This document shows, piece by piece, positions 21,268 through 37,977 of a stretch of 64,000 bases of DNA. The translations under genes and the position numbers were made by a program. Source of the stretch: Pseudomonadota bacterium (GTDB taxonomy: Bacteria > Myxococcota_A > UBA9160 > SZUA-336); assembly GCA_021295775.1 (NCBI GenBank), contig JAGWBS010000002.1, positions 31,986 through 95,985 on the forward strand, written 5' to 3'. A model generated the notes under the pieces. The model searched no databases. It saw nothing but the letters and a program-made list of their open reading frames with translations, and was not told the DNA's origin. The first letter of the stretch is position 1. Each line of letters starts with the position of its first letter.

Positions 21268-21350
21268 GCGGCAGCTCCGGCGGGACCGGGTCGGGGGCGA
21301 GGCCGGGGGCGCAAAGCCTATCCTTTGCGGGGGAAGGGGGAAAGGCCAAG

Positions 21351-22313: not shown

Positions 22314-22444
22314 TCTAAGCTTGCGCTCCACCCCGAGTCGGACGCATCGCTCGCTCGCGTCCGGCCGGAGGTCGAGCGACGCCGGCGGGCCGGGACCGCG
22401 GGCGAATTCGAGTTGGAGTCCGCCGCCCGCGAGGAGACAGAGCA

Positions 22445-23269
22445 GTGAGAGCGTCGCCGGCCTGGATCCTGATCGCCCTTCCGCTGCTCTGGGCCGCGCC
22501 TTCGGCCCCGGCCCAGCAGCCGGAAGCGGTCCAGGGACAGCCGGCAGCCGAGAGTTCCCCCGCCGCGGAGCGGGAGACCGCGGAACCGGCCGCTCCGCCC
22601 GCCGAAGGACGCACCCTCGCCGAGTGGTACGCCATGGGCGGCTGGGTCATGCACGTGCTGGTGGGCATGTCGGTGCTGAGCCTGATCGTCATCCTGGAGC
22701 GGTTCTGGTCGCTGCGACGCGGCGCAACGCTTCCGCGCGACTTTCTCGGCCAGTACCGCGACCACGCCCACCGCGGCGAACTGAAGCAGGTCGTGGAGCT
22801 CTGCTCCCAGTCGGACCACGCCGCGGCGCGCGTGCTGCGCTCGGGGCTGGTGCACTTCGACCAGGGGCTGGCCGACATGGTGGACGCCGCGTCGGTGGCC
22901 GGCGAGCAGGAGTCCGGCGGGCTGCGCCGCAACCTGCCCCTGCTGGCCGCGCTGGGAAACATGGCCACCATGCTGGGGCTGCTGGGCACGGTGCTGGGGA
23001 TGATCGAATCGTTCGACCTGATCGCCAAGACCGGCACCGGGGACGCGCGGGTGGTCGCCGGGGGGATCTTCCAGGCCCTGGTGACGACGGCCGCCGGGCT
23101 GATGGTCGGGCTGGTCGCCATCGGCGCGCACTCGCTGCTGCGCCGCAAGGCCGAAGGTCTCGAGGTCGAGCTGGTGGAGAAGTCCTCGCGCATGCTCGAG
23201 GACCTCTGGCTGAGGCGCGAGGCCTCCAAGCTGCCGCAGGGCGAGGCCAGCGAAGCGGCGGCGGGCTAG
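22445..23269 (+). CDS. exbB: MotA/TolQ/ExbB-family proton channel (ExbB-like) with N-terminal signal peptide and acidic/Pro-rich extension
   Basis: 274 aa. GTG start preceded by GAGGAG. N-terminus MRASPAWILIALPLLWAAPSAPAQ, then a linker. Family core: LPLLAALGNMATMLGLLGTVLGMIESF...GGIFQALVTTAAGLMVGLVAI. Confidence 0.85.
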   Translation: MRASPAWILIALPLLWAAPSAPAQQPEAVQGQPAAESSPAAERETAEPAAPPAEGRTLAEWYAMGGWVMHVLVGMSVLSLIVILERFWSLRRGATLPRDFLGQYRDHAHRGELKQVVELCSQSDHAAARVLRSGLVHFDQGLADMVDAASVAGEQESGGLRRNLPLLAALGNMATMLGLLGTVLGMIESFDLIAKTGTGDARVVAGGIFQALVTTAAGLMVGLVAIGAHSLLRRKAEGLEVELVEKSSRMLEDLWLRREASKLPQGEASEAAAG

Positions 23270-23272
23270 GCC

Positions 23273-23680
23273 GTGGCGCGCAACCGCGACGAGGACTCCG
23301 GCCTGGGGCTGACGCCGCTGGTCGACGTGGTCCTGCTGCTGCTGATCTTCTACATCGTCACGACCTCCTTCGTGGACCGGGAGATCGAACTCCGCCTGCC
23401 CGACTCCCAGGCGTCGGCGATCCCGGAGGAGAGGAAGAAGCTCACGATCGAGATCGGCCGCGAACCCGGCCAGCTCGCGCTCAACGGGGAGTCGCTCAGC
23501 GTCGAAGCCCTCGACCTGCGCATCGGCTCGGCCGCGCAAGCCGACGTCATCACCGCGGTCGAGATCCGGGCCGACCGCCTGGCGGTTCACGGCCGAGTCG
23601 TCGAAGTCCTGGGCATCGTCAAGAAGCACGGCGTCGACAACGTCGGAATCGCCGTGCGCCCGGTCGAAGCCCGCACCTGA
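23273..23680 (+). CDS. exbD: ExbD/TolR-family biopolymer transport protein
   Basis: 135 aa, starting 4 nt after the exbB stop. Its N-terminus LTPLVDVVLLLLIFYIV carries the conserved membrane Asp. Has an ExbD-like periplasmic domain. Confidence 0.85.
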   Translation: MARNRDEDSGLGLTPLVDVVLLLLIFYIVTTSFVDREIELRLPDSQASAIPEERKKLTIEIGREPGQLALNGESLSVEALDLRIGSAAQADVITAVEIRADRLAVHGRVVEVLGIVKKHGVDNVGIAVRPVEART

Positions 23681-23756
23681 AGGCAGCTTCGGAACACGCG
23701 TGCGAGAGCAGTTCGAGCCGGACCGGGGGAGAAACCGTCAGGTGGTCAGCGGATCC

Positions 23757-24623
23757 ATGAAGTCCCCCTCGCTTTCCCTGCTCGCGAGCCTCTTGTGCGC
23801 CTTGCTCGTCGCGGCCGGCTGCTCCGCCAAGCGGCCCGAACTCCCCAGTACGTCGACGCCGCAAGTCCCCTCCGAGATGCCCTCCTCGGAGCGCAGCGCC
23901 GAGGGCCCCTCCGGCGGCTCCGGCCAGCAGTCCGGCGGCGGCGCGAGCGCGGGAGCGGGGAGCGCATCCGGCGGCTCCGCCGGCCTCGGCGACGAACGCT
24001 CTTCCCTTGGCGTATCCCCACCACCCGGCTCCGGCGCGGGCGGGAGCGCCGGCCCGGGTTCCGAAGCTCCCACCGCCTCGCGGGACGGCTCCGGCGCAGG
24101 CCCGACCCGGACCGAGCGCATAGAGGTCCTGGACCGGCGTTACTACGGCGTGCTCAGCGGCGGTGGATCCGGTGGCGATCCCGGCGGCGGCAGCGGCGCG
24201 GGCGGATCGCACAGCGGCACCGCCGGCGACGGCGGCGACGGGACCGCCGGCGAAGACGGACTCTCCGCCTCGCGTCCCGCCCTGGGAGTGCGAGGCGGCG
24301 AGAAGTCCGGCCGCGACGGCGAGCCGTCATCCGCGGCCGCCTCCGGAGTCTCTGGCGGCGAAGACTCCGAAGCCGGTCCATCGACCGGCGACCAGAGCCG
24401 GCCCTTCGAAACTTCGGGCAGCGGCGCGAACCCGGAGGACATCCCGCCGGTCGACAACGACGACGAGTTCGCGCGCCAGCTCCGCCGCGCGGCGGAAACC
24501 GAGACCGACCCCGAGCGCCGGCGCAAGCTCTGGAACGAGTACCGTCGCTACAAGGGCTTGCCCGAGCGAGCGGAAACCCAGCAGAGTGAGGAGGACGAGA
24601 CTCCTCGAGGAGACGACTCATGA
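23757..24623 (+). CDS. Gly/Ser-rich low-complexity lipoprotein with conserved-looking charged C-terminal helix
   Basis: ATG at 23757 within track ORF 23700..24623. Lipoprotein signal MKSPSLSLLASLLCALLVAAGC. About 200 aa of G/S/A/P/D-rich sequence follow. C-terminus: DDEFARQLRRAAETETDPERRRKLWNEYRRYKG. High GC3 in this frame. Confidence 0.65.
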   Translation: MKSPSLSLLASLLCALLVAAGCSAKRPELPSTSTPQVPSEMPSSERSAEGPSGGSGQQSGGGASAGAGSASGGSAGLGDERSSLGVSPPPGSGAGGSAGPGSEAPTASRDGSGAGPTRTERIEVLDRRYYGVLSGGGSGGDPGGGSGAGGSHSGTAGDGGDGTAGEDGLSASRPALGVRGGEKSGRDGEPSSAAASGVSGGEDSEAGPSTGDQSRPFETSGSGANPEDIPPVDNDDEFARQLRRAAETETDPERRRKLWNEYRRYKGLPERAETQQSEEDETPRGDDS

Positions 24624-25843
24624 GAGAACAGCCCGGCCCGGCCGCGAGATCCCTGGCTCTGGTCCTCGCCGCCGCCGTCTTCTCCGCGGCTTGCGGCGCC
24701 ACGGCCACCGGCCCGGCCCCGTCGGTCGTCGGCCCGAAGAGTTCGACCCAGGCCGAAGCGGAGGCGTCCGCCCCCCTCGCCGGAGGCGGCACGCTCGAAG
24801 TCGTCGTGCCGGTCTTCGATCCCGGACTGCCCGAGGACGAATCTTCCGAGGTCGACAAGGGCGTTTTTCCCGAGCTGCGAAAAGCCGAGGCGGTGCGCTT
24901 CGCCCAGAAGCTCAGGCTGGAACTCGAGTCGACCCGCGCTTTCGAAACCGTGCGCGTGGTTCCCGACGCCGAGAGCGCCGCCGATCTCTACCTGCGAGGC
25001 GAGATCCTCCATTCGGACGGCGCGACCCTGAAGATCCGCTTGACCGCGGAGGACGCCTCCAACCGTCGCTGGCTCTCCGAAACCTTCTCCCGCAAGGTCG
25101 GCCCGAGGTTCTTCGAGAGCCCGCGCAACGCGGGGCAGGACCCCTACGACCCGCTTTTCGCCGAGGCCGCTGAGGCGGTGGCCGACAAGCTGCGAAAGCT
25201 CGACCCCGAGCGCCTGGCCGAAATCGAGCGGATCGGGGAGATCCGCTTCGCCCGCAGCCTCAGCGAAGAGGCCTTCGCGGACTACGGAGGCTGGAGAAAC
25301 CGGCAGTTCGTGCTGACCGGGTTCCCCGACGAGAACGATCCGATGCTCAAGCGCGCGCGCGCGGCGCGCGTCCGGGACCGCATGTTCGTCGACGACTGGC
25401 AGACCTGGTACGAGGGCTTCTCGGGGGAGATGGACGAGAGCTACCGGCAGTGGCAGGAGCAGAGCCTGACCGAGGTACTGGCGCACCGTCAGGCCCGCAA
25501 CGAAGCCATCGCCAAGGCCGTGGTCGGAGCCGTCCTGGTCGCCGGCGCCGCGGCCGCCGCATCGCAGGGGACGGACCTCGGCACGGCGGGCGCCGTCGTC
25601 GGCGGCGTGGGGGCGATCGCCGCCGCCGCCCAGGCGCTCGAAGCCCGCAGGCAGGCCAAATTCCACCGCGAAGCTCTGCACGAGATCGCACAGTCCATCG
25701 ACGCCGAAATGGCCCCGAACGTCATGCGGCTGGAGGAGCGCGAAGTGGAGCTGACCGGCAGCGCCGCCGAGCAGTTCCGTCAGTGGAGGGCTCTGCTGCG
25801 CGAAATCTACGCCGAGGAAGCCGTCCCCGACGTCGATCTCTGA
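24620..25843 (+). CDS. Lipoprotein with C-terminal Gly/Ala-zipper hydrophobic segment (unknown function)
   Basis: 407 aa. ATGA overlap with the upstream stop. Signal/lipobox LALVLAAAVFSAAC. Glycine-zipper-like AVVGAVLVAGAAAAASQGTDLGTAGAVVGGVGAIAAAA near the C-terminus. Confidence 0.7.
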   Translation: MREQPGPAARSLALVLAAAVFSAACGATATGPAPSVVGPKSSTQAEAEASAPLAGGGTLEVVVPVFDPGLPEDESSEVDKGVFPELRKAEAVRFAQKLRLELESTRAFETVRVVPDAESAADLYLRGEILHSDGATLKIRLTAEDASNRRWLSETFSRKVGPRFFESPRNAGQDPYDPLFAEAAEAVADKLRKLDPERLAEIERIGEIRFARSLSEEAFADYGGWRNRQFVLTGFPDENDPMLKRARAARVRDRMFVDDWQTWYEGFSGEMDESYRQWQEQSLTEVLAHRQARNEAIAKAVVGAVLVAGAAAAASQGTDLGTAGAVVGGVGAIAAAAQALEARRQAKFHREALHEIAQSIDAEMAPNVMRLEEREVELTGSAAEQFRQWRALLREIYAEEAVPDVDL

Positions 25844-25849
25844 GACCGC

Positions 25850-27328
25850 GTGCCTGACCCGACCAACGACCCGGACCCGCGCGGGAAATCCGAAGCTCTC
25901 GACGACGCCAACGAACGCGCCTGGGCACGGCGCGGGAGATATCTCGGCGGGGCCGCCGGGGTGCTGCTGGCGACCGTCGTCGCCGTCGTCGGGATGAGCG
26001 TGTTCTTCCCCGGCGCGGACGCTACCCACTCCGATCCCCCCGAAACCGAAGTTCCGCCGGAGTTGCCGGTTCCGGCCCCCTTTCCCGACCGCGAGGCCCG
26101 CGAACTCTTCCTGCAGGCGCTCGAGGACTACCGCGTCGGACCCAAGCCGGAAGTCGAGTCCGAGGCTTTCGCCGCCTGGAGTTCCGAGGCCCGGGCGCGT
26201 CTCGAAGCCGGCGAGAAGGCCGCGGTGGAGGCCTTCGCGAACAGCGCCTTCGGCGAGGCTCTGCGACTCCTGACCGAGACCGCCGAACGCGCCGAGCGCG
26301 AGCTGGAGTCCCGCGACACGGCCTTTCGCGAAGCCCTCGACGACGCCGAGACGGCCCGCGCGGCCGCGGATCACGCGCGCGCATCGAGCCGCATCGCTCA
26401 GGCCCTGAAATGGAAGCCCGCCGACCCCGAGGCGCAGGTCCTGGCCCGGCGAATCGACGAGCTGCCGGCGGTCGCCGAGGCACTGGAAGAGGCCCGCGTG
26501 GCGCGCGCAGAAAACCGCCCCCGGCGCGAACTCGAAGCCCTGCGCAAGGCCCTCGCCGCGGATCCCGACCGCCCCGACGCGAGAGCCCGGGCGGAAGCGA
26601 TCTTTCGGGATCTCGCCGCGAAACGCTACGCGCGCGCACTGAACCGGGGTCTCGCCGCCGCCTCGGCCGGGGACCTGGACCGCGCCCGGGCCCGGCTGGC
26701 CGATGCCCGGTCCCTCGCCCCCGACCGCGAAGAGACGCTCGCGCTCGAGCGCGAAGTGGAAGCTCTGGCCAGACGCGGCGAAGTCCGGCGCGCTTTCGAG
26801 CGCGCCGAAGCGGACGCGCTCGAAGACCGCTGGCGCGAAGCCGCCGCCGGCTACGCCGCCGTCCTGATGCAGGATCCCGTCCACGCCCCGGCTTCCGGAC
26901 GCCTGGACCGCGCCCGGGAAATTCTCGCCACCCGGGCAGCGGTCGAGGGGCTGCTCGCCCGGCCCGAGCGTCTCGCCGAGGCGGGGGCCGAGCGCGCGGT
27001 CGCCGCCCTGATCGAACGAGGTCTCGCGCTCTCGGCACACAGTCCGAGCCTGGCCGGCTCCCTGCGGGAACTCGGCCGCCAGAGCGAGCGCTACCGCAGA
27101 GAGATCAGCGTGCTCGTGATCTCTGACGGACGCACCAGCGTCGCCGTCCGCGGCCTCGGGCGCATCGGCGAGGTTGAAAACAAGTCTCTTCGGCTGCGCC
27201 CCGGCCGCTACACTTTCGAGGGTAGGCGCAAGGGCTATCGCGACAAGCTGGTCGCCGTCGCGCTGACTCCCGAGGACGACGGCCGGGAGATCGAGGTGAG
27301 CTGTGACATCCCTCTCGAAACCAGGTGA
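25850..27328 (+). CDS. Single-pass membrane protein with long Ala/Arg/Glu-rich helical (coiled-coil/TPR-like) region and C-terminal PEGA-like beta domain
   Basis: 492 aa with a GTG start. TM segment YLGGAAGVLLATVVAVVGMSVFF. About 330 aa of helical repeats follow. C-terminus ISVLVISDGRTSVAVRGLGRIGEVENKSLRLRPGRYTFEGRRKGYRDKLVAV resembles a PEGA domain. Confidence 0.65.
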   Translation: MPDPTNDPDPRGKSEALDDANERAWARRGRYLGGAAGVLLATVVAVVGMSVFFPGADATHSDPPETEVPPELPVPAPFPDREARELFLQALEDYRVGPKPEVESEAFAAWSSEARARLEAGEKAAVEAFANSAFGEALRLLTETAERAERELESRDTAFREALDDAETARAAADHARASSRIAQALKWKPADPEAQVLARRIDELPAVAEALEEARVARAENRPRRELEALRKALAADPDRPDARARAEAIFRDLAAKRYARALNRGLAAASAGDLDRARARLADARSLAPDREETLALEREVEALARRGEVRRAFERAEADALEDRWREAAAGYAAVLMQDPVHAPASGRLDRAREILATRAAVEGLLARPERLAEAGAERAVAALIERGLALSAHSPSLAGSLRELGRQSERYRREISVLVISDGRTSVAVRGLGRIGEVENKSLRLRPGRYTFEGRRKGYRDKLVAVALTPEDDGREIEVSCDIPLETR

Positions 27329-27410
27329 ACTCGTGAATTCCCGGCGGACCGGGCGAGGTCCGCGGCGCGCCCGGTCCGAGTCCTCGCCGGCGGGCGACTG
27401 AAGCGAATCC

Positions 27411-28487
27411 ATGCCCTTCCGACGCCGCGAGCCGCCCGGCACCAACCTCGCCCTGCTGGACGTGATGTCCTGCGGGCTCGGCGCCGTGATCCTGGTGCTG
27501 ATGCTCGCCAAGCCTCATCTGGCGACCACCGAGATCCCCGCCCAGGCCGAAGTCCTCGAGGCCGAACTGGTCGGCTTGAACGCCCGGCGCGAAGCGCTGA
27601 ACGCCGAGCTGGCCCGCGCCGAGAGCGAAGCCGAGCGCGAGCGCGTGCGCGTGCTGGCCCTGCGCCGGCGCAGCGGCGTGCTCGAGGCCCGCCGTCGCGA
27701 CCAGTCCCTCGAGACGGCGCAGCGGCGGAGTTCCCTGTCGGCGGTCGAGAGCCTGCTGGAAAACCGTCCGGACCCGCCGACCGCCCCGACGCCCGACACG
27801 GTCGAGTTGGAGGCCAACAACGAGGCCGAGTACCTGATCGGCCTGAAGGTCGAGGGCCGGCGCATCGCCATCCTGATCGACGCCAGCGCCTCGATGACCG
27901 AGGAGAGGCTGATCGAAGTAATCCGGCGCAAAACCGGCACGCCGGACGAGCGTCGCGCCGGCCCCAAGTGGCAGCGCGCCCGCCGCGTCCTGCGCTGGCT
28001 CCTGGCCCGCCTCCCCCCCGACTCCCAGGTCGCGGTCCTCACCTACGCGGAGAAGGCCGAGTTCCTGGGCGAGCAGCGCTGGACGGACGCCTCCGATTCC
28101 GCGGCCCTCGGCGCTCTGGCCGTGGCGCTCGACGAGGTCGATCCCCGGGGTCCGACGAACTTCCGCGCCGGTCTCGACGCCGTCTGGGCGGAGCGTCCCG
28201 ACAGCCTCTACGTGGTCACCGACGGCCTGCCCACCCAGGGACGCGAGAGGAGCTTGCCCCGCCGATTCCTGAGCGGGATCAAGGGCGGCTGCGGGAACTC
28301 GAACACCATCTCGGGGGAATGCCGCCGGGCGCTGATGAACGAGGCCATCGACCGGAACTGGAACGGGCGGGTCGCGAACGCCATCCTGCTGCCGCTCGAA
28401 GGCGATCCCGAAGCTCCGGCGGTCTACGCGAACTGGACGAGAGGCACGGGCGGGCGCCTGCTCGCGCCGAGCCCGGACTGGCCATGA
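27411..28487 (+). CDS. ExbD/TolR/MotB-like Asp-TM anchor + coiled coil + VWA (MIDAS) domain protein, paralog 1
   Basis: 358 aa. N-terminus MPFRRREPPGTNLALLDVMSCGLGAVILVLMLA is a short basic tail followed by LLD at the start of a single TM helix. Coiled coil: EAELVGLNARREALNAELARAESEAERERVRVLALRRR. VWA domain with MIDAS DASAS (IAILIDASASM), a later T (GPTNF) and D (VVTDG). Confidence 0.75.
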   Translation: MPFRRREPPGTNLALLDVMSCGLGAVILVLMLAKPHLATTEIPAQAEVLEAELVGLNARREALNAELARAESEAERERVRVLALRRRSGVLEARRRDQSLETAQRRSSLSAVESLLENRPDPPTAPTPDTVELEANNEAEYLIGLKVEGRRIAILIDASASMTEERLIEVIRRKTGTPDERRAGPKWQRARRVLRWLLARLPPDSQVAVLTYAEKAEFLGEQRWTDASDSAALGALAVALDEVDPRGPTNFRAGLDAVWAERPDSLYVVTDGLPTQGRERSLPRRFLSGIKGGCGNSNTISGECRRALMNEAIDRNWNGRVANAILLPLEGDPEAPAVYANWTRGTGGRLLAPSPDWP

Positions 28488-29455
28488 GACGGCGGCGGCG
28501 CGCGTTCGACGTCTTCAGCATCTCGTTTCTGGACGCGATCGCCTGCGGTTTCGGCGCGGTGATCCTGCTGCTGATCGTCAGCCTGAACGCCGACCGCGCT
28601 CCGGCGGGAGCCCCGCCCGATGTCTCCGCCCTGCTCGACTCGGCCGTCGAAACCCGCCTCGAGACCACCGCCCTGAAAGAGCGTCTGGAACTCAGCCGGT
28701 CGGTGGACGCCGATGCCCGCGCCGAGGCGGCGGAACTCGAAGCGCGCATCCTCGCGGCGAGGGCCGCCTACGAAGCCGACCGCCGGGAAGCCCAACGGCT
28801 CGAGCGCCGACTGGCGAAGCTCATCCCGCCCGAAGAGCGCCCGGCCAGCGCCGCCACGCGCACCCCGGGCCCGGCGGAGGAACGCGACGACGAAGTGGGC
28901 GGGATCCCCGTCGGCAGCGAGTACGTGATCTTCGTGATCGACACCTCGGGATCGATGCGGAGCATCTGGGAAAAGGTCGTCGGGCGCCTCGAAGCCGTGA
29001 TCGACGCCCACCCGACGGTCAGCGGCTTTCAGGTCGTCAACGACAACGGCACCTACCTGCTCCCCGCGTACAAAGGGCGCTGGATCTCGGACACCCCCTC
29101 GCGCCGCCGCAGCGTCAAGAAAATGCTCCGGAATTGGAACAGCCTGTCCAACAGCAGTCCCGTCGAAGGCCTCGAAGAGGCCCTGGAACGCTACGCCCGT
29201 CCCGGCCGCAGGCGCTCGGTGTATGTATTCGGCGACGAGTACACCGGCGGCTCGTACGACGTGGTGCTCGATTCGCTGGAGCGCCACAATCGGGACCCGG
29301 TCAGCGGGCAACCGCTGGCGGAGGTTCACGCCCTGGGCTTCTTCTCGACCGCGGGGGCGACGAGCGCGAGCTACCTGCTGTCGTCGGCGCGTTTTTCGAT
29401 CCTCATGCGCGAGGTCGTGCGGCGCAACCGGGGAACCTACCTGACCGTGCCCTGA
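28484..29455 (+). CDS. ExbD/TolR/MotB-like Asp-TM anchor + coiled coil + VWA (MIDAS) domain protein, paralog 2
   Basis: ATG at 28484 (ATGA overlap with the paralog 1 stop), in frame within track ORF 27968..29455. N-terminus MRRRRRAFDVFSISFLDAIACGFGAVILLLIVS. Coiled-coil segment present. MIDAS DTSGS (VIFVIDTSGSM). 323 aa. Confidence 0.75.
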   Translation: MRRRRRAFDVFSISFLDAIACGFGAVILLLIVSLNADRAPAGAPPDVSALLDSAVETRLETTALKERLELSRSVDADARAEAAELEARILAARAAYEADRREAQRLERRLAKLIPPEERPASAATRTPGPAEERDDEVGGIPVGSEYVIFVIDTSGSMRSIWEKVVGRLEAVIDAHPTVSGFQVVNDNGTYLLPAYKGRWISDTPSRRRSVKKMLRNWNSLSNSSPVEGLEEALERYARPGRRRSVYVFGDEYTGGSYDVVLDSLERHNRDPVSGQPLAEVHALGFFSTAGATSASYLLSSARFSILMREVVRRNRGTYLTVP

Positions 29456-29518
29456 TGCCCGGAGCGGGCTTGGCGACCCGACCTCGCGCCGGCGGGGGCG
29501 CGTGGCAGGGACGCCGTC

Positions 29519-30301
29519 TCAGCCAGTCCCGTCGGGATCGGGGGCTGGAAGCGCGCTGATGCGCCCGACCAGCACCTCGTCGCAGTAGCGGCGGGTGTCG
29601 ATCACCAGGCCGTCCTGCAGGCGCTGAAGCTGGTGCAGGAAGAACATCAGCACGATGCTGATCAGCAGCGCCACCAGGGTCGAGTTGAAGGCCAGGCCCA
29701 GACTCTCGGTCATCGCGAAGATGTCGCCCGCCAGCGCCTGGTCCGCCTGGGACAGCGCCCGCCCGATGCCGCGCACGGTGCCGATGAAGCCGATCGAAGG
29801 GATCGCCCAGATCAGGTAGCGGATCAGCGAGTTCTCGGCCTCCTGCTGGGCCGCCAGAGCGTCCACGCCGGCCTCGATCGCCTCGGAGGCGTTCTGCACG
29901 TCGCGCTGGACCGCGAAGCGCCGCAGACCGGCGGCCAGCGTCTGGACCAGGGGCGTGCGCCAGACGTCGGGGCGCTGGCGTCCCAGCTCCTCGAAGCTCC
30001 GGACGGCCCGGGCGGGATCGCCCGAGACGTCGGTGTCCTCGAGCAGGTCGGTGTCGAACAGGTACTGCTGGCGCAGGATCGTCCGGTACTTGTCGAAGAT
30101 CAGGAACAGCCCCCAGACCATCAGCACCAGACAGATTTCCTGCTCGTAGTCCTTCAGTACGATCCAGAGATTGCGCGGAGTCGCCATGCCCGCCTCCATG
30201 GCGGCCTCGATCGACCGCTCTGCCTGGGGGCGGACCCAGCCCAGGTAGGCGGCGTGGATCCCGACGATGGAGGCGGCCAGGGCGGCCAGGCTTCGAAACA
30301 T
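29519..30301 (-). CDS. MotA/TolQ/ExbB-family proton-channel protein, 4-TM MotA-like topology (orphan stator A-subunit)
   Basis: 260 aa. Four hydrophobic helices with a cytoplasmic insert between TM2 and TM3. Family core: LIWAIPSIGFIGTVRGIGRAL...ESLGLAFNSTLVALLISIVLMFFLHQL. Confidence 0.75.
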   Translation of the reverse strand: MFRSLAALAASIVGIHAAYLGWVRPQAERSIEAAMEAGMATPRNLWIVLKDYEQEICLVLMVWGLFLIFDKYRTILRQQYLFDTDLLEDTDVSGDPARAVRSFEELGRQRPDVWRTPLVQTLAAGLRRFAVQRDVQNASEAIEAGVDALAAQQEAENSLIRYLIWAIPSIGFIGTVRGIGRALSQADQALAGDIFAMTESLGLAFNSTLVALLISIVLMFFLHQLQRLQDGLVIDTRRYCDEVLVGRISALPAPDPDGTG

Positions 30302-30302
30302 T

Positions 30303-30431: not shown

Positions 30432-30440
30432 GGTCTCCTC

Positions 30441-32420
30441 CTATAGATAGCGGCCGATGCGAAAGCCTAGGTCATCCCGGCGGCCGCCGAACCCTTCGCG
30501 GCGGGCGGCGCGAAGTCCGCTGCGCGTCCCCGTGCGCCAGCTCGCTCCCTTGACCACGTGAACGCTTCCGTAGCCGGGACCCAGGGGGTCGATTTCGACC
30601 GATCCCGGGGCCGGAGGCTCGAGCAGATAGAAGTCGTGGACCCACTCGCTGGCGTTGCCGGTCAGGTCGAACAGTCCCGAGCGCTCGGGCGCGAAGCTGC
30701 CGACCGGGGCGAGCCGGGCGAATCCGTCCGAGTAGCGGGGGACGTAGGTTTCGACCGACCCCTTGGCAGTCTCGTCGGCGACGTTGCCCACTCCGGACGG
30801 CAGCGTATCCGAGTCGCCCCAGGGAAAGACCGTCCGGCGCCCGCGCCCGGCCTGCCGCGCCAACCACTCCCACTCCGCCTCGGTCAGCAGGCGGTAGCCG
30901 TCCGGCGGATCCTGGCCTCCTCCCGCGTGGGCGTAGAACGGAGTCAGGCCCTCCCGGACGCTCAGCCAGTCGCAGAACGCCACCGCCTCCGCCCAGGAGA
31001 CCGAGGTCGCGGGGTGGTCGCCCCGCTCCCCGGGGTGCCCGGGGCGGAAGCTGCGGAACTGCTCCAGGCTGACTTCGTGCAGTCCGGCGTAGAACGGCCG
31101 GCTCAGCCGGACGTCGCGCTCGAACTCGTTGGCGCGCTGTCCCTTCTCGCCGCGCGGATCGCCCATCCGGAACGCCCCCGCCGCGCCGGGATTGAGCAGC
31201 ACCAGGCTCGCGCCGACGGAGTTGGTGTAGCGGACGGGCGCGCGCGCCAGCCGCGCCTCCCGCTCGGTCAGCAGGGTCTCCCGCAGCAGCGTGGCCCGCT
31301 CGGGGTCCGGAGCGAGCGTGCGGCGGACCGTCTCGTAGCCGCGGCGCTGCAGCTCGATCCGCGTTTCCTGCGCCGGCAGAACCAGATCGAGGGGGGTCCG
31401 GCCGGCGGGCTCGCCGTCGATCCGCACCTCGGAAACGGGATCGGATTCGATCCGCGCGCGCCCGGTCTTGCGGGTCAGGTGCAGCTCCAGGGTCCGCGTC
31501 TCCCCCCGGTCGAGGGTCGCGTGCAGGGTGCGGGGAAAGTAGCCCTCCAGCGAGTAGCGCACGCTGTGCTCGGCGTGCGCCGCTACGCGCTCGGGATTCG
31601 AGGCGCGGAATCCGTCGACCAGCAGCAACCCTCCCGCTGGGGACAGGTCGAAGCGCAGCTCGGCGGAGGGAGGGACCAGGCGGTAGTTGCGGCGGGCCAG
31701 GGGCCGGTCGCGGGTCAGCTCCAGCGTGTCGCGGACGGGCGCGTAGCCCGGCAGTCGGAGCGCGACCGGATAGCGCCCCGCGGGCAACTCCCGCTCCAAA
31801 GGCGTCGGCAGGGGGTCGAGGCCTTCGATCTCGACCGACGCCCCGCTCGGCTCGGAGCGCAGTTCGAGCCGTCCCCGGGCGCGACTCAGCGGCAACGAGA
31901 CCTCCAATCGGGCGCCCCGCTCGACCTGGATGTCGAGGTCGGCGATCTCGTACCAGTCGTGGCGGGCGGAGAGACGGTAGGCTCCGGCGTGCAGTTCGTG
32001 CTCCAGGAGCGCGCCGATGCCCGCCAGCGCGTCGTCCACGTACCAGCGTGTTTCCACCTCGGGAGGATGCGTGGAAGCGTGGACCCGTCCGGGCAGCGGC
32101 TCGAGCGCGACGCTCAGGGTCCGGCCGGGGGTGTGGATCGGCAGCGTCCTGGCGGCGAACCCGGGTGCCGAAACGCGAACCTCCAGTTCGCCCCCGAGAT
32201 CGTAGACCCGGCCCAGGATCACCAGCGCCCAGCCGGACGCGAGTTCGATCCGGGCGTTCTCCGACGCCTCCGGGGGTTGCACCTCGACGGGCGTGCCGCG
32301 CGTCAGCGCCAGCGTCACGCCCAGCACCAGCGCGCCGACCGCCAAGCCCAGCGCGGCGTAGAGGGAGCGGAGCCACCAGCGCCTCTGCACCCTTCGAAGC
32401 TGGCGTTCAGTGGGAGACAT
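30441..32420 (-). CDS. Membrane-anchored PEGA-repeat protein with C-terminal FGE-sulfatase-like (SUMF1/GldK-like) domain lacking the FGE cysteine pair
   Basis: 659 aa. TM segment WWLRSLYAALGLAVGALVLGVTLAL. At least 3 PEGA-like units (e.g. LRSEPSGASVEIEG...LPAGRYPVALRLPGYAPVRDTLEL; IESDPVSEVRIDGEPAGRTPLDLVLPA...LQRRGYETV). FGE-like C-terminus: HPATSVSWAEAVAFCDWL...YRLLTEAEWEWLAR...GNASEWVHD...VVKGASWRTGTRSGLRAARRE...DLGFRIGR. No Cys occurs where FGE has its CxxxxC. Confidence 0.8.
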   Translation of the reverse strand: MSPTERQLRRVQRRWWLRSLYAALGLAVGALVLGVTLALTRGTPVEVQPPEASENARIELASGWALVILGRVYDLGGELEVRVSAPGFAARTLPIHTPGRTLSVALEPLPGRVHASTHPPEVETRWYVDDALAGIGALLEHELHAGAYRLSARHDWYEIADLDIQVERGARLEVSLPLSRARGRLELRSEPSGASVEIEGLDPLPTPLERELPAGRYPVALRLPGYAPVRDTLELTRDRPLARRNYRLVPPSAELRFDLSPAGGLLLVDGFRASNPERVAAHAEHSVRYSLEGYFPRTLHATLDRGETRTLELHLTRKTGRARIESDPVSEVRIDGEPAGRTPLDLVLPAQETRIELQRRGYETVRRTLAPDPERATLLRETLLTEREARLARAPVRYTNSVGASLVLLNPGAAGAFRMGDPRGEKGQRANEFERDVRLSRPFYAGLHEVSLEQFRSFRPGHPGERGDHPATSVSWAEAVAFCDWLSVREGLTPFYAHAGGGQDPPDGYRLLTEAEWEWLARQAGRGRRTVFPWGDSDTLPSGVGNVADETAKGSVETYVPRYSDGFARLAPVGSFAPERSGLFDLTGNASEWVHDFYLLEPPAPGSVEIDPLGPGYGSVHVVKGASWRTGTRSGLRAARREGFGGRRDDLGFRIGRYL

Positions 32421-32440
32421 CGCAGACGATCGGGTTCGGC

Positions 32441-33553
32441 TCAGTAGACGAGATCCGTATCGGTAATCTCCTGGCGGACCAGCCGGCCCTCGCGGTAGTA
32501 GGACGTGACCTCGACATCCCCATCGCCGTTCAGGTCCTCTTCCTTGCGGGCCAGGACCGGCCGGGCTGGGTCGTCGCCTTCATAGTATTCCCAGACGTCG
32601 GAACGTCCGTCTTCATTCGCGTCGATCTCGGCGCGCTCCGGGAAACCGGAAAGATCGTAGAAGGTACGGATCTCCATCCCGCCGGAAAAATCCCGGTCTT
32701 CCAGCTCGATGGCGCGACGCCGGCCCTCGTACTCCACCCGCCGGTCGATGCTTCCGTCGTTGTTGGTGTCGTGCTCCTCGTCGGTCAGCCAGCCGTTCGC
32801 GTAGCGGAACAAGCCGTCGCGGACCCCGTCGAAGTCCCGGTCGACCACGACCCGCGTCGCGCGGCCGTCCGCGCCGTACTCGGTCCAGCGGTCCGGCATC
32901 CCGTCGTGGTTGGTGTCCTGTTCGCGAGAGGCGATCCCGCCGGAGCCGTGGTAGGCGTTGACCGTGTCGAAGCGGCCGTCGTAGTCGGTGTCCTCCAAAC
33001 GCGCGAGCAGGGCGCCGCTGCGCGCGTCGTGCTCGATGCGGATTTCCGGATTCCCGTCGCGGTCCGCGTCCAGCAGCTTGACCAGCAGCTCCTGTTCGCC
33101 GACGCGGTGAAGTTCGCGTTCGAAGATGGATTCCGGCAGATCCCGCTCGACCGGTGCGCGCGGAGCTGCCAGCGGATCGACGGACGCCCGGGGCTCGGCG
33201 CCGCCCGCGGCGGCCGCCCCGCTGCGAGCCAGCTTCTCTTCGCGTCGGATCTGCTCCAGCAGCTCTTCCTGCCGCCGGAGTTCGGCCTCGATCTCGTCCT
33301 CCAGCGCCCGCTGGCGCCAGAGTTCGCCCTCGATCTCGGCTTCCAGGATTTCTTCGGAGCGAGCGCTGCCCTGCTGGCTGCGGACGGGCAGGCTTCCGTC
33401 GTCCCCCCGGCGCTCGGTCGCGGCGAAAGGCACCGAGGGGCCGAACGCAGCCGCGCTGGCGGCTCCGGCGCTCCCGGCCGGGGCGCCTCCGAGCAGCGCA
33501 GCCAGCAGCCAGACGGGGGTGGAGAAGGGCGCTGCAGGGCTACGAATGCGCAT
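32441..33553 (-). CDS. Secreted coiled-coil protein with 8 Dx[DN]xDG-type repeats (short paralog of the giant repeat protein)
   Basis: Start trimmed to ATG at 33553, preceded by GGAGGCGGAGGAA. Signal-like N-terminus MRIRSPAAPFSTPVWLLAALLGGAPAGSAGA. Acidic coiled coil: EILEAEIEGELWRQRALEDEIEAELRRQEELLEQIRREEK. Repeats such as DTDYDGRFDTV, DTNHDGMPDRW, DTNNDGSIDRR, DANEDGRSDVW. Confidence 0.7.
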   Translation of the reverse strand: MRIRSPAAPFSTPVWLLAALLGGAPAGSAGAASAAAFGPSVPFAATERRGDDGSLPVRSQQGSARSEEILEAEIEGELWRQRALEDEIEAELRRQEELLEQIRREEKLARSGAAAAGGAEPRASVDPLAAPRAPVERDLPESIFERELHRVGEQELLVKLLDADRDGNPEIRIEHDARSGALLARLEDTDYDGRFDTVNAYHGSGGIASREQDTNHDGMPDRWTEYGADGRATRVVVDRDFDGVRDGLFRYANGWLTDEEHDTNNDGSIDRRVEYEGRRRAIELEDRDFSGGMEIRTFYDLSGFPERAEIDANEDGRSDVWEYYEGDDPARPVLARKEEDLNGDGDVEVTSYYREGRLVRQEITDTDLVY

Positions 33554-33613
33554 TTCCTCCGCCTCCCGGCACCGGGCTCGAAAAGCTAGCACGCGCCCGG
33601 GCCGCGGCCCGGG

Positions 33614-36600
33614 CTATCGCTTCCAGAAATCGCTGAACCCGCCGCAGCTCAGCGCCCCGAATTCCTTCGTTCCCGTGGGCGCCGCTTCGCCGTCGACCTC
33701 TACCGCCCGCTCGCTGGCCAGGTCGAAACGCACGTCCACGCGGCCGTCGAAGTCGCGGTCCTCGGCCTGCACGCTGGGGGCGCCAGCGGCGTAATCGACC
33801 CAGACGTCCGGGCGGCGGTCGGCATTGGTGTCCGCCTCCATGCGCAGCGGCACCCCGTCCTCGTACAGGTTGCGGCGGTCGCCGTAGCCGTCCCGGCTCG
33901 AGTCCTCGACGCTGACCCGGATCACGCCCGCTTCGTACTCGATCCGGGTGCGCGGCGTGCAGCGCCACTGTGCGTTGCCCTCGGCGTCGAAGCGCGTGAG
34001 CCGGTCCGGGAGGCCGTTGCAGTTGCGGTCCTCCTCCTGGGCGGCGATCCGCTCGCCGTCGAAGAGGAAGACGATGTTGGGGCGGGTGCAGCTCCCGCGG
34101 GCCTCGGCCTGGATCCGCTTGACGCCGCCTTCCAGGTGCTCCCAGACATCGATCCAGCCGTTCTGGTTGGTGTCCCGCTCCACGCGCCGGACCTCGCCGC
34201 CGGCCAGGAAGGTGAAGGTGTCGTAGGCGCAGTCTCCGTCGCTGTCCACGGCGTCCTCGACCACCTGCCCATCCGGTGAGAAACGCTGCCGGTGATCCAG
34301 GCAGCCCGCCCCCCGGTCCTCCTCGAGTTCCGCGGCCACGCCGTCCGCGAAGCGCGTCACGCGCTCGGGCTCGCCGTCCTCGTCCAGGTCTTCGATCCGC
34401 TCGCGGGGCTCGCCGGCGGCGTCGAAGACGAGGCTCAGGTCGGGCTCGCCGTTGGCGTCGGTGTCGCGCCGCTCCAGGGCGATCTTCCCGTCCGGGGCGA
34501 GGTCGAGCCAGCGGTCGACCCGGCCGTCGGCGTCGGTGTCGTGCTCCTGGCGCAGCTCGACCCCCGCCTCGAGGTAGACGCGGACGTCGAAGCGGCCGTC
34601 GCCGTCGGTGTCCCTGCGGACTTCGCGCGGTTCCGACTCGCCCGCGGCGTAGAGATCGATCTTGTCCACCCGGCCGTCGGCGTCCGCGTCGGACTCGACC
34701 CGCGAAAGCGCGCCATCGAGGTAGTGGGAGACGGTCTCGAAGCGGCCGTCGCCGTCGAGGTCCGATTCCTGCCGCGCGAGCCGCCCGTCCTCGTAGTGGG
34801 ACAGACTGTCGAACTCGCCGTCGAAGTCGGTGTCCGAGCGCAGGCGAACTTGAACGCCGTGCCGGAATTCGCCGATGTGGTCGTCCCGGCCGTCGAAGTC
34901 GCGGTCCTCGGCCTGGCCGGTCTGAATCCCCTGCGCGTAGGTCTTCGCGGCATCGGTGCGGCCGTCGCCGTTGGTGTCCACGCGCTCGAGCCGCGGGCGG
35001 CCCGCGGCGTCGAACTCGGTCCACTGGTCGAAGGCGCCGTCGCCGCTCGCATCCCGCATCTGGCGGGCGATACGGCCCGCCTCGAACTCGCTGACCGCCT
35101 CGGCGAAGCCGTCGCCGTCGGCGTCGCGCTCCTCGCGCACCCGCCTCTCTCCGCTGTCGTCGTAGAGCGTGGACACCTCCGGGACGCCGTTTCCGTCGGC
35201 GTCGAGTTCGACCCGCGCGCGGCGCTCCCGGCGATAGTGGACGATCGCCTCGAAGACGCCGTCGAAGTCCTCGTCGCTGAAATCGCGGGCGATGGAACCC
35301 TGGGCGTCGTATTCGGCGCGGTAGTCCACTCGGCCGTCGAAGTTGCGGTCCTCCGTCAGCCCCGCGGCGAGTTCGCCCGACAGCCGCGCGGTCCGGTCCG
35401 GCTCCCCGTCGCCGTTGGTGTCGGTCTCCACCCGAGTGCGCGCGCCGCCGGCGTAGTCCGTCCAGGTGTCCACCCGGCCGTCGCCGCTGGTGTCCTCCAG
35501 CACGCGCTGGGGCTCGCCGGAAACCGGGTCGAGCATCACCCACTGGTCGGGCTGGCCGTCGCCCCGCGTGTCGCGCTCCTGCTTGTGCATGCGGCCGTCC
35601 TCGAAGAAGCTCCACAGGTCCGTGCGGCCGTCGAAATCCTCGTCCAGGAACTGCTGCAGCGGCCGGCCGTCCCGCAGCTTCTCCGTGAAGTCGACGCGAC
35701 CGTCGGCGTTGCGGTCCTGTTCGCGCTCGCTGGGCTGGCCGTCCGCGAAGCGCGTGCGCAGTTCGAGCGCGCCGTCGCCGTCGCTGTCCTCGCGCTGCTC
35801 GGCGAGCTGCCCCGCGAGGAAGTCGTACTCCACGTCCACGCGACCGTCGTAGTCGCGGTCCTCGCGCTGGACCGAGCGCTGGCCGCCCGCGAACTCCACC
35901 CAGGTGTCGACCGCACCGTCCGCGTTGGTGTCGCGCTCGCTGGCGACCTTGGCGCCGTCGCGGTAGCGATCGTCCACGTCGGCCGTTCCGTCGCCGTCCG
36001 CGTCGCGCGTCTCGCGCTCCAGCGCGTCGTCCCGGTATTCGCGCCAGACGTCGAAGACGCCGTCGGCGTCGCTGTCGATCTCCTCGCGGACCCGCACTTC
36101 CCGCTCGTCGTAGTGGACCGCGATCTCTATCCGACCGTCGCTGTCCGCGTCGCGTTCCTGGCGCACCCGCCGGCCGTCCCGGAAAAACAGCAGCGTCTCG
36201 TGGCGGCCGTCGTGGTCCACGTCGACCTCCTCGCGCGCGAGCGCCTCGCCCCGGTAGTGGCCGATCCGGTCGGGCGAGCCGTCGCCGCTGGTGTCTTCCT
36301 CGGTGCGGATCTTGAGCCCCTCGGCGTAGTGGATGCGCAGGTTAAGCTCACCGTCGCCGGTCGTGTCCTGCTCCTCGAGCTGCTTGTTCCCCTGGGCGTC
36401 GAAGGTCGAAAGCGCCTCAGGCCGGCCGTCTTCGTCCGGGTCGAGCCACTTCTGGTAGACCCGGTCGCCGCGGTACAGGGTGACGTCGTTCGGCTTGCCG
36501 TTGCCGTCGGGATCCCGTTCCAGCCGCGTCCGGACGCCCGCCTCGAAATACAGGTGGGTGTCCGGTCGTCCGTCGAAGTCGCTGTCGTCCCGCTGCAGCG

Positions 36601-36931
36601 AAGGCCTTCCCTCGGCGTCCAGGTCCACCCAGCGGTCGGGCCGGCCGTCGCCCGAGCGGTCCTCTTCGACGCGGATCTCCCGGCCGTCCTCGAAGAAGCG
36701 CCACTGGTCGACCCGGCCGTCGCGGTCGCCGTCCAGCTCGATGCGCTCGATCTCCCCGTCCAGGAAGTGGTCCCAGCGGTCGGGGGAGCCGTCCCCGTCG
36801 AGGTCCGCGACCTGCCGCAGAAGTTGTCCGGTCGCGGGGTCGAACTCGCGAACCACCCCCGCCCGGGCCAGGTCGGGCCCGAACGCCGACAGCAGCAGGC
36901 CAGCGGCGCAGGCCCGAGCGATCACGGGCAC
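33614..36931 (-). CDS. Giant secreted tandem-repeat protein (about 1105 aa, about 40 Dx[DN]xDG Ca-loop-like repeats, Cys-containing C-terminal region)
   Basis: Lies in the frame of track ORF 33614..38071, whose part upstream of 36931 overlaps tonB in another frame and is junk. Candidate starts are GTG at 36931 (VPVIARACAAGLLLSAFGPDLARAG, signal-like) or GTG at 36925 (GTGA overlap with the tonB stop). Repeat period is about 24-25 aa, e.g. EEDRSGDGRPDRWVDLDAEGRPSLQR / ERDTNADGAVDTWVEFAGGQRSVQR. Confidence 0.75.
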   Translation of the reverse strand: MPVIARACAAGLLLSAFGPDLARAGVVREFDPATGQLLRQVADLDGDGSPDRWDHFLDGEIERIELDGDRDGRVDQWRFFEDGREIRVEEDRSGDGRPDRWVDLDAEGRPSLQRDDSDFDGRPDTHLYFEAGVRTRLERDPDGNGKPNDVTLYRGDRVYQKWLDPDEDGRPEALSTFDAQGNKQLEEQDTTGDGELNLRIHYAEGLKIRTEEDTSGDGSPDRIGHYRGEALAREEVDVDHDGRHETLLFFRDGRRVRQERDADSDGRIEIAVHYDEREVRVREEIDSDADGVFDVWREYRDDALERETRDADGDGTADVDDRYRDGAKVASERDTNADGAVDTWVEFAGGQRSVQREDRDYDGRVDVEYDFLAGQLAEQREDSDGDGALELRTRFADGQPSEREQDRNADGRVDFTEKLRDGRPLQQFLDEDFDGRTDLWSFFEDGRMHKQERDTRGDGQPDQWVMLDPVSGEPQRVLEDTSGDGRVDTWTDYAGGARTRVETDTNGDGEPDRTARLSGELAAGLTEDRNFDGRVDYRAEYDAQGSIARDFSDEDFDGVFEAIVHYRRERRARVELDADGNGVPEVSTLYDDSGERRVREERDADGDGFAEAVSEFEAGRIARQMRDASGDGAFDQWTEFDAAGRPRLERVDTNGDGRTDAAKTYAQGIQTGQAEDRDFDGRDDHIGEFRHGVQVRLRSDTDFDGEFDSLSHYEDGRLARQESDLDGDGRFETVSHYLDGALSRVESDADADGRVDKIDLYAAGESEPREVRRDTDGDGRFDVRVYLEAGVELRQEHDTDADGRVDRWLDLAPDGKIALERRDTDANGEPDLSLVFDAAGEPRERIEDLDEDGEPERVTRFADGVAAELEEDRGAGCLDHRQRFSPDGQVVEDAVDSDGDCAYDTFTFLAGGEVRRVERDTNQNGWIDVWEHLEGGVKRIQAEARGSCTRPNIVFLFDGERIAAQEEDRNCNGLPDRLTRFDAEGNAQWRCTPRTRIEYEAGVIRVSVEDSSRDGYGDRRNLYEDGVPLRMEADTNADRRPDVWVDYAAGAPSVQAEDRDFDGRVDVRFDLASERAVEVDGEAAPTGTKEFGALSCGGFSDFWKR
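33725..36805 (-). repeat. Protein-level tandem repeat array (about 40 units of roughly 72-75 nt) inside the giant CDS; boundaries approximate
   Basis: By-eye enumeration of 40 clear and 3 degenerate units, each with E-x-D-x-[DN]-x-DG-x-x-D-x-[WF/aliphatic]...G. The units are divergent at the DNA level, so this is not a simple nucleotide repeat. Confidence 0.7.
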
Positions 36932-37977
36932 CGATCCGGATCCGGGCAACTTCCGTCTTGAGTGAAGATCAGGCGCATCGGCTTGTTCACGATGTAGTGG
37001 ATGCTCGTGGGCGGAGGCGGAAAGGGGCTGGCGTGCCGGAACGCCCGGCTGGCCGTCTCGCCCAGCAGCGTGTCGGTGATTCGCGCAACCTCCACGTCGT
37101 GCGCGGATCCGCCGCGGTCCAGCCGGAAGCTCAGCGTCACCTGGCCGTCGCCCAGTTCGGGGGGCACGGACCAGCGCTCGTACACGCGCCGGCGGATCCG
37201 CTCCAGGTACTCCACGCAGACGGGGTCGGCCATGCAGTCTCTCTGCTCTCCGACCAGCGCGCCGCGACGGCCCGCGCCGTCGAGCAGCGCCCGGGAATCC
37301 CCGACCTCGACGTCGGCCACGCGCGCGCCGATCACGTCGCCTTCGACGGCGTTGTCGGCGATCACTCCGCGCGCGACGTTCGGAGCCGAGACCAGCGCGG
37401 GGCGCGGGCTGACCTCGGGGGAAGCGGCCTCCATCAGCCTCGGGCCGCGGGTCGTCGGCGCGGCCCGCACGCGGGTGACCTCGGCGCTCGCGGCCCGGGG
37501 AATCCGCTTGGGCTGCGCCACGGGTCGCTCGGAGAATACGCTCAGCGCGCGGGCCTCGACCTGCATCCGGCGGGGAGAGGCGGTCACGGCGGTGCGCGTG
37601 ACTTCGGCGAGCTGGGTGCTTTCCAGCCGCTCGACCCGGCTCTTCTCCACGATCTCCGGCTGATGGGTCGGCCGGTGGCGGATCACGCTGGCGTCCGGCA
37701 CGCGCTGCGCGAGCCGCTTGCGCCGCAGCTCGGGCGGCTGGGGCACGGGCTCGGGCTCGAACACCCGCACCAGCACGACCTCCTCCCGGGGGAGAACCGC
37801 GCCCAGGATCACGTTCCAGAACGCCGCCAGCAGCGCCAGGTGCAGGCCGATCGACACCACTGCGATCGCCCAGCGGGGCACCCGCCCGCCGCGATCGTCG
37901 AGCGGGTCGTAGCGGGGGACGCTCGCGGCGATCTCCGGCCCGAGGGGGCCGCTGGCCAGGGGACTCGCGCTCGCCAT
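36922..37977 (-). CDS. tonB: TonB-family energy transducer
   Basis: 351 aa. N-terminal anchor RWAIAVVSIGLHLALLAAFW contains the SxxxH motif (SIGLH). Pro-rich stretch EPEPVPQPPE. C-terminal TonB_C-like domain: YLERIRRRVYERWSVPPELGDGQVTLSFRLDRGGSAHDVEVA...ASRAFRHASPFPPPP. Confidence 0.8.
   Translation of the reverse strand: MASASPLASGPLGPEIAASVPRYDPLDDRGGRVPRWAIAVVSIGLHLALLAAFWNVILGAVLPREEVVLVRVFEPEPVPQPPELRRKRLAQRVPDASVIRHRPTHQPEIVEKSRVERLESTQLAEVTRTAVTASPRRMQVEARALSVFSERPVAQPKRIPRAASAEVTRVRAAPTTRGPRLMEAASPEVSPRPALVSAPNVARGVIADNAVEGDVIGARVADVEVGDSRALLDGAGRRGALVGEQRDCMADPVCVEYLERIRRRVYERWSVPPELGDGQVTLSFRLDRGGSAHDVEVARITDTLLGETASRAFRHASPFPPPPTSIHYIVNKPMRLIFTQDGSCPDPDRCP

Follow-up and report, generated by a model that had tools for sequence, protein, structure and literature searches.

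The 64,000-nucleotide (nt) stretch of DNA analyzed here (hereafter, the window), which comes from contig JAGWBS010000002.1 of the Pseudomonadota bacterium assembly GCA_021295775.1, contains a block of 13 genes in which eight genes for envelope proteins are accompanied by exbB, exbD and tonB and by two genes for calcium (Ca)-loop repeat proteins (Table 1). This block is a Ton-flanked, rearranged variant of a motor family that was predicted in 2025 and that is itself part of a larger, eight-gene operon. According to our best overall reading, which we consider probable, the region 23700-32420 represents this operon in rearranged form, a self-contained envelope cassette whose genes are denoted A to H below (p3, p4, p5, m4, m5, m6, p6 and p7, respectively).

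The conservation of the cassette became apparent from the homologs of G, which form a tight family of ~353-amino-acid (aa) proteins with ~40% identity (1468 clusters at 90% identity); when one genome of each species was scanned with G, at least 576 stretches matched. In the gene calls of three loci (L001-L003, from Denitrobaculum, a 6.4-Mb metagenome-assembled genome of Desulforhopalus, and Pseudodesulfovibrio), G belongs to a single co-directional operon the products of which measure ~220-270 aa, ~410 aa, ~470-520 aa, ~650-700 aa (a PEGA-FGE protein) and 47-66 aa, followed by a MotA_ExbB protein of ~250-280 aa, a VWA protein of ~353 aa and a ~315-aa protein. When all 13 window proteins were compared by tblastn with loci from 80 other species, A-B-C-D-E-F-G-H were found in this order, on one strand, in every adequately flanked locus. 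The offsets are near-constant (A ~4000, B ~4400, C ~5700, D ~7050, E ~9100, F ~9240, G 10001 and H ~11050), and the lengths of the core proteins are uniform between species. In the same comparison, ExbB, ExbD, TonB, m2 and m3 had no match within ±10 kb in any of the 80 other-species loci. The flanks show no recurrent neighbor family (147 flanking open reading frames (ORFs) from 38 loci and 184 Pfam families, each in no more than four ORFs), and the cassette is therefore self-contained. The hosts number several hundred species and belong to the Alpha-, Beta-, Gamma- and Zetaproteobacteria, the Desulfobacterota and the Binatia; among the cultured carriers are Methylophaga muralis, M. sulfidovorans, Magnetovibrio blakemorei MV-1, Denitrobaculum tricleocarpae and Aestuariispira insulae. 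The position of the cassette varies within genera, and the flanks are common only to close species.

The original prediction, which was made from the window sequence and took the entire block for a motor-driven envelope machine, had named synteny in other genomes as its test; synteny is kept in the 80 species for eight of the 13 genes. A conserved, syntenic envelope system that combines a motor with VWA proteins, as opposed to plain iron uptake, is accordingly upheld. The predicted boundaries are not, because ExbB, ExbD, TonB, m2 and m3 are missing both in the 80 species loci and in a 72%-identical sister of the window lineage. The layout that had been described as two convergent operons likewise turns out to be secondary, having been derived by rearrangement from a single co-directional operon; in the lineage of the window, D-E-F has been turned around and now follows H. 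The sister (L004/L005) has the same split core without Ton or repeat genes, so that the split either preceded the Ton and repeat additions or arose independently. The full 13-gene layout occurs elsewhere only in an 80%-identical relative (L006/L007). In particular, exbB-exbD adjoin the core only in the window and in L006 and are absent from the other loci that are long enough to show them, and tonB, m2 and m3 adjoin it only in the window and in L006/L007. Given their absence from the 80 species loci and from L004/L005, the Ton and repeat genes are additions or neighbors rather than parts of the conserved machine. The additions abut the core halves, with 19-76 nt between exbD and A and 20 nt between m3 and D, and are predicted to be co-transcribed with them, which we consider probable.

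These observations bear on the possibility that all 13 genes constitute one machine, whose two stator-type channels would act at the cell surface together with TonB, the VWA proteins and the giant repeat proteins. The tight packing of the additions against the core, the identical layout in L006 and the TPR-TonB_C protein found next to two cassettes of another subtype (L088 and L090; see below) would fit such a machine; however, the Ton and repeat genes are unmatched in the 80 species loci and in L001-L005, the sister lineage maintains a split core without them, no family is enriched in the flanks of the 38 canonical loci, and the repeat is of a generic kind that elsewhere is fused to HEAT, cadherin or lipase domains. 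We therefore regard a 13-gene machine as unlikely.

The F-G-H module of the cassette has been described in silico (Mol Biol Evol 2025;42:msaf138; PMC12204202, section 8, Fig. 4c,d) as a TolQ-like pentamer with two different 'TPH-vWA' axle proteins, a putative force transducer. According to that study, the vWA proteins occur in heterologous pairs with a tightly linked tolQ-like gene and without tolR or exbD, mainly in Proteobacteria, and an AlphaFold 3 model puts the TolR-like Asp helix inside the TolQ-like pentamer, with the Asp facing a Thr ring; the function is stated to be unknown, and PEGA, FGE and the genes A-E are not mentioned (PMC12204202). The claim that the system is undescribed thus does not hold for its TolQ-like channel and Asp-helix VWA pair, which had already been recognized computationally. 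Literature searches for the domain combination returned nothing beyond this paper; the vWA systems described in PMC7159879 (eLife 2020) are of a different kind, centered on MoxR and other NTPases. Judging from their sequences, F, G and H of the window carry every sequence-level feature of the TPH-vWA family, namely the Asp helices, the heterologous G/H pair, the linked TolQ-like F, the conserved Thr and the lack of exbD in the cassette, the match being to the described features rather than to the sequence of the seed protein (Idiomarina loihiensis). The published account covers three genes only, whereas here these genes close, at the 3' end, an operon of eight genes in a rigid order; furthermore, the window has its channel gene in the opposite orientation to G/H, and ordinary exbB-exbD and tonB lie alongside.

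F is the most conserved protein of the cassette (55-63% identity). Two threonines, T175 and T208, do not vary among 33 F sequences; in an alignment with ExbB of the window, they fall at its GT and TT positions. The affinity of F to characterized channel subunits is remote: NCBIfam gives only 18 bits to exbB2, a phmmer search of the PDB with F alone yielded no match, and the F family profile barely reaches solved A subunits, the best being MotA (6ysl, E 0.38). In all canonical loci, F is immediately upstream of G, and ExbD has no match there. In the window, F is found on the opposite strand, 63 nt beyond H (the spacer 29456-29518 between the ends of the two gene sets), and exbD lies 3.7 kb upstream of G, in this lineage only.

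The G family alignment contains an invariant CGLGA in the helix and a complete metal ion-dependent adhesion site (MIDAS), D157xS159xS161, T249 and D271. The pore-helix Asp of G lies in LALLDVMSCGLGA and is present in all full-length G sequences; in H, the corresponding segment is ISFLDAIACGFGA, and in 75 H sequences, the conservation of Asp17 and D152xS154xS156 is 95% or higher. H directly follows G in all loci. The description of the two as paralogs is correct in that they are related, but only distantly so, the similarity detected by BLAST being limited to the 30-residue transmembrane (TM) helix. From the sequences, the VWA heads are predicted to be tethered to the inner membrane by the ~100-residue linkers, which are likely to be a helix or a coiled coil, and hence to be periplasmic; the assignment of these heads to a surface or adhesin module is accordingly unsupported.

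The remaining five proteins appear to make up the scaffold on which the motor would act. Pfam, NCBIfam and PADLOC searches gave no match for A, B, C and E, and permissive E-values in Pfam produced nothing above noise for A, B, C, m2 or m3. The A family shares the C-terminal motif PEDIPxxDNDxxxAxQxRxAAExExDPxxxxxLWNEYRxYKGLP, which was detected by tblastn directly upstream of B in 57 loci, and a Cys-pair N-domain that is missing from the window copy. A had been listed among the lipoproteins, which holds for the window lineage (lipobox LVAAGC) and some Binatia; across the family, however, it is mostly a signal-peptide protein. In B, Cys25 is invariant, 59 of the 63 sequences have a lipobox, and Asp is never found at position +2. 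The AlphaFold 2 model of B (pLDDT 78) consists of an α/β domain followed by a ~70-residue helical hairpin with a Gly-rich hydrophobic tip; among the structures retrieved with it by Foldseek, PelC (5t11) ranks best (E 2e-3, TMt 0.55), along with LptE, the N-domain of TolB, and CsgG, all at marginal E-values albeit with a probability of ~1. The model of C is confident (pLDDT 90), and its Foldseek matches are the TPR arrays of P58IPK, OGT and Hop and the C-terminal domain of carboxypeptidases D and N.

The best sequence matches of D among solved structures are PorK/GldK proteins (9ots_A, 9mzu_A and 9myj_B; E 1e-13), narrowly above human FGE. True FGEs carry a catalytic Cys pair. The last 160 residues of D contain no Cys, so that this pair is absent and sulfatase-maturing catalysis by D is ruled out; as judged from its sequence, D combines a TM anchor and PEGA domains with an FGE fold that is structural, not catalytic. 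A small hydrophobic ORF that ends in the invariant motif SLNSP(T/A)SFPVDI is located between D and F in 65 of the 68 loci. This is E, which apparently is not annotated at NCBI: the protein numbering between F (MCE2389988.1) and TonB (MCE2389992.1) leaves no slot for it.

Several variants of C may be relevant to function. The periplasmic module of C is homologous to the ectodomains of ~760-aa Ser/Thr kinases, and in three loci (L088:8248-20126, L090:8259-20075 and L091:3043-15744) the cassette itself includes a kinase form of C and an additional FHA gene. In this subtype, C is ~750-785 aa long with an N-terminal Ser/Thr kinase domain, a ~450-aa protein with a C-terminal FHA domain is encoded between F and G, D measures ~790-824 aa and E ~96-117 aa, a radical-SAM gene is found upstream, and a 215-293-aa ORF follows H. 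Two of these three cassettes are adjacent to a gene for a TPR-TonB_C protein (L088:20131-21561 and L090:20060-21553, both on the minus strand; 28.4 bits, above the Pfam cut-off) that was not seen next to the 38 canonical loci and that represents a second, independent association of TonB_C with the system. In the nearest relatives of the window (L004:8187-9866 and L007:1499-3208), C has an N-terminal cytoplasmic J (DnaJ) domain with the HPD motif; C of the window and a 98%-identical copy are ~70 residues shorter and lack it. Thus, C can carry a cytoplasmic module: besides forms that have none, there are forms with a J domain and forms with a Ser/Thr kinase, the latter accompanied by an FHA protein. 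In the species-level loci sampled, neither the J-domain nor the kinase form was observed.

These variants raise the question of whether the cassette is an envelope sensor, such that the VWA heads probe the wall or the outer membrane and C relays the signal, either through the J domain to DnaK or through the kinase to the FHA protein. The homology of the TPR and β-sandwich module to kinase ectodomains, the three loci with a C-kinase and FHA gene within the cassette, and the J-domain forms of C in the nearest relatives of the window are compatible with this possibility, and PEGA-FGE ectodomains are typical sensor-type modules. Nevertheless, the 63 distinct C proteins at the species level all lack the HPD motif and (one truncated ORF call aside) are 414-566 aa long, far below the ~760 aa of the kinase-fused forms, so that the canonical cassette encodes no recognized cytoplasmic output domain; in the window, the cytoplasmic part of C amounts to only ~30 residues. 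We consider a sensor to be improbable as the primary role of the cassette.

The genes present, their synteny, the conserved residues and the folds of the monomers are established by the sequences and models; from them, we infer a scheme for the stoichiometry, the rotation, the partner of the VWA heads and the role of the system, under which the cassette is reasonably likely to be a trans-envelope force transducer driven by the proton motive force. In this scheme, F would form a proton-conducting pentameric ring, and one G and one H would supply a heterodimeric axle by placing their Asp-bearing, ExbD-like helices within its pore, yielding a 5:2 motor of the composition F5:G1:H1. Proton flow would turn or pull G/H, with the linkers holding the two MIDAS-containing VWA heads ~10 nm or more into the periplasm, where the heads would use the MIDAS to bind an acidic residue in a partner protein, which may be A, B, C or D, and the force would be passed to the outer-envelope scaffold of D, C, E, A and B. 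The C-terminal tail of E may dock in the TPR groove of C, by analogy with the C-terminal peptides in Hop, PEX5 and Tom70. The logic would be similar to that of Tol-Pal or of the GldKLMN core of the T9SS (the system for type IX secretion), where an inner-membrane 5:2 motor works on an outer-envelope complex.

Several considerations weigh against this reading. The F5:G1:H1 stoichiometry draws on analogy and on one published prediction, and the whole family is known from sequences and predicted structures. The Foldseek support for the fold of B (E 2e-3) is marginal, and the probable location of B in the outer membrane follows from the +2 sorting rule of E. coli. The J-domain and kinase/FHA variants hint at signaling over purely mechanical work. 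Finally, the tight packing of Ton genes on both halves of the core leaves room for a functional link in this lineage, as does the TPR-TonB_C protein adjacent to two of the three kinase-type cassettes. A more ambitious interpretation, namely, that the cassette represents a distinct, unnamed class of trans-envelope machines, a third Tol/Ton-like system with MIDAS-headed axles on a PorK-like/lipoprotein outer scaffold that in the window lineage is wired to a Ton-type motor and secreted Ca-repeat proteins in a dual-motor arrangement, is tentative and seems rather doubtful at present.

Comparison with known systems shows partial overlaps with several of them. The cassette resembles GldKLMN (PorKLMN) of T9SS and gliding motility in the combination of a 5:2-type inner-membrane motor with a non-catalytic FGE-fold protein and periplasm-spanning axles, but F belongs to MotA_ExbB rather than GldL, G and H are VWA proteins rather than GldM, D has a TM anchor and PEGA domains in contrast to the lipid-anchored GldK/PorK, and the hosts are not Bacteroidota. 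A true T9SS was rejected given that Pfam scans detected no GldM, GldN or SprA families in the cassette or the window. With Tol-Pal, the cassette shares a TolQ-family channel, Asp-helix partners, a TPR protein (C compared with CpoB), the similarity of B to the N-domain of TolB, lipoproteins and a self-contained operon; unlike Tol-Pal, it includes no TolA, β-propeller or OmpA-type Pal, and the G/H axles themselves bear periplasmic heads. Membership in Tol-Pal was also rejected, on the scores of p1 and p2 below the equivalog cut-offs, the 18 bits of F to exbB2 and the lack of an OmpA domain. A MoxR-VWA (Bat-type) system was dismissed as well: there is no MoxR, and the nearby AAA+ gene (19756-21366) is of the ChlI/YifB type.

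The similarity to ZorAB of Zorya consists of a MotA/ExbB-superfamily channel outside motility and a marginal PADLOC match to ZorA (E 0.001), which covers the TM region of F; the cassette differs in the lack of a ZorA tail, a peptidoglycan-binding ZorB and the ZorC/D/E effectors. This match was the only one obtained with PADLOC, and membership in Zorya was rejected. It is, in our estimate, very unlikely that the cassette is a Zorya-type anti-phage defense system in which a MotA-like motor senses perturbation of the envelope. Apart from the weak ZorA match, such a role could be suggested by the variable position of the cassette within genera and by its surroundings in some genomes: the canonical cassette L003 is located next to a type I-C CRISPR-Cas locus (L003:11220-18601), and the split cassette of L004 is flanked (1-3167 and 17192-21065) by genes of the type found in defense islands, for SLFN/AlbA_2, AAA_21 and NOV_C proteins and a 1256-aa DEAD/ResIII helicase. 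However, no nuclease or other effector is present, PADLOC detected no ZorB, ZorC or ZorD, and all eight proteins are membrane-embedded or periplasmic, short N-terminal segments and the F loop aside. Moreover, housekeeping genes predominate in the flanks, no defense family recurs among the 38 loci, and rigid conservation of eight genes across classes is unusual for defense islands.

As to the Ton system, p1, p2 and m1 have the respective Pfam domains, and m1 combines a TM helix with an S-x-x-x-H motif and a marginal TonB C-terminal domain; the differences are that the three genes are outside the conserved cassette and that tonB is followed by two genes for Ca-loop repeat proteins. NCBIfam assigns p1 to the TolQ/ExbB and p2 to the TolR/ExbD families, with scores (for p1, tolQ, 79 bits vs a cut-off of 221; for p2, tolR, 66 vs 127) far below any of the equivalog cut-offs. 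Among 20 other large ORFs of the window, the subset of its ORFs that was scanned, all of them housekeeping genes, there was no TonB-dependent receptor, OmpA, MoxR or secretin, as had been claimed from the sequence; receptors need not be linked to Ton genes.

For m2 and m3, the sole NCBIfam match is the repeat of 'Lsa25.6 adhesin', and a phmmer search of the PDB found nothing for m3. The repeat is generic and extracytoplasmic: at E<=1e-3 it matches 3264 representative clusters, at <=1e-30 only 41, and its fusion partners elsewhere include HEAT repeats, cadherin/FG-GAP domains and a GDSL lipase. The best library matches to m2 and m3 are fragments or far shorter proteins; a single protein of ~1000 aa, P0278, reached a good score (38% identity). 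A search of metagenomes with m2 for a separate TonB-repeat module returned only one, uninformative 1-kb contig.

At the level of the gene models, the G+C content of the window is ~72%, and long spurious ORFs are therefore common. The third-position G+C content is of the coding type in all 13 ORFs, which were found, with their overlaps and gaps, at the coordinates first reported; scans of the products against Pfam and NCBIfam bore out the domains assigned to them. Along the plus strand, the gaps from p1 to p7 are 3, 19, -4 (ATGA at 24620), 6, 82 and -4 (ATGA at 28484) nt, and on the minus strand the GTG start of m2 (36931) overlaps the tonB stop. Two start codons are probably located downstream of those of the maximal ORFs: that of A would be the ATG at about 23757 (MKSPSL...), 76 nt past exbD, and that of m3 would give a protein of 370 aa beginning with MRIRSP, in agreement with the length originally given. 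A promoter and terminator scan of 22000-38300 detected signals at the background level only, and the 63-nt convergent spacer folds no better than shuffled sequence (z -0.84).

Table 1. Genes of the block and its immediate surroundings (window positions)
Gene	Coordinates	Strand	Features
AAA+ gene	19756-21366	-	ChlI/YifB-type, Mg-chelatase family, not MoxR
M28 peptidase gene	21351-22313	+	Bounds the block
exbB/tolQ-like (p1)	22445-23269	+	Pfam MotA_ExbB 1.5e-24; signal-peptide-like N-terminus; lineage-specific
exbD/tolR-like (p2)	23273-23680	+	Pfam ExbD 3.8e-24; Asp-bearing N-terminal helix; lineage-specific
A (p3)	23700-24623	+	Exported; lipoprotein in this lineage; long Gly/Ser-rich disordered region
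B (p4)	24620-25843	+	407-aa lipoprotein; family ~410 aa, no Pfam match
C (p5)	25850-27328	+	N-in TM helix, periplasmic TPR superhelix, transthyretin/PEGA-like β-sandwich
G (p6)	27411-28487	+	Pfam VWA_2 6.9e-6; ExbD/TolR-like Asp helix, ~100-residue linker, VWA
H (p7)	28484-29455	+	Pfam VWA_3 9e-5 and VWA_2; Asp helix, linker and VWA, very divergent from G
F (m6)	29519-30301	-	Divergent TolQ/ExbB/MotA-superfamily channel subunit; Pfam MotA_ExbB 1e-13
E (m5)	30303-30431	-	42-aa single-pass membrane micro-protein; invariant C-terminal motif SLNSPxxFPVDI
D (m4)	30441-32420	-	N-in TM anchor; two PEGA domains (1.5e-25); FGE-sulfatase (3.4e-32)
Repeat protein (m3)	32441-33592	-	370/383 aa; ~8 units of the m2-type repeat
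Ca-loop repeat protein (m2)	33614-36931	-	1105 aa; ~42 tandem 24-residue repeats DxDxDGxxDxxxxYxxGxxxRxEx
TonB/TolA-family protein (m1)	36922-37977	-	TonB_2/TonB_C marginal (7e-5, 2e-4; 22-23 bits); lineage-specific
TANGO2-family gene	37986-39041	+	Bounds the block

The edges of the block, with the M28 peptidase gene upstream of exbB and the TANGO2-family gene after tonB, are the same in L006. Elsewhere in the window, the maximal ORFs of a YhdP-like gene (54017-56794, minus strand) and a GAF-PtsP gene of the enzyme I-Ntr type (56214-59036, plus strand) overlap by ~580 nt on opposite strands, which implies that at least one of the two start codons is further in.

Proton-driven 5:2 motors power flagella, Ton-dependent uptake, Tol-Pal, gliding and T9SS, and Zorya, and every new motor coupling so far has revealed a new route of energy to the outer envelope. 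The operon described here is kept as a block, with no phenotype attached to it, in several hundred species from at least six major lineages. Compared with the three genes reported in 2025, the full list of eight parts opens the system to direct tests; it includes the apparently unannotated micro-protein E and is complemented by the variants with a J domain or with a kinase and FHA. For genome annotation, the implication is that exbBD and tonB located next to the cassette, as in this lineage, should not by default be counted among its parts.

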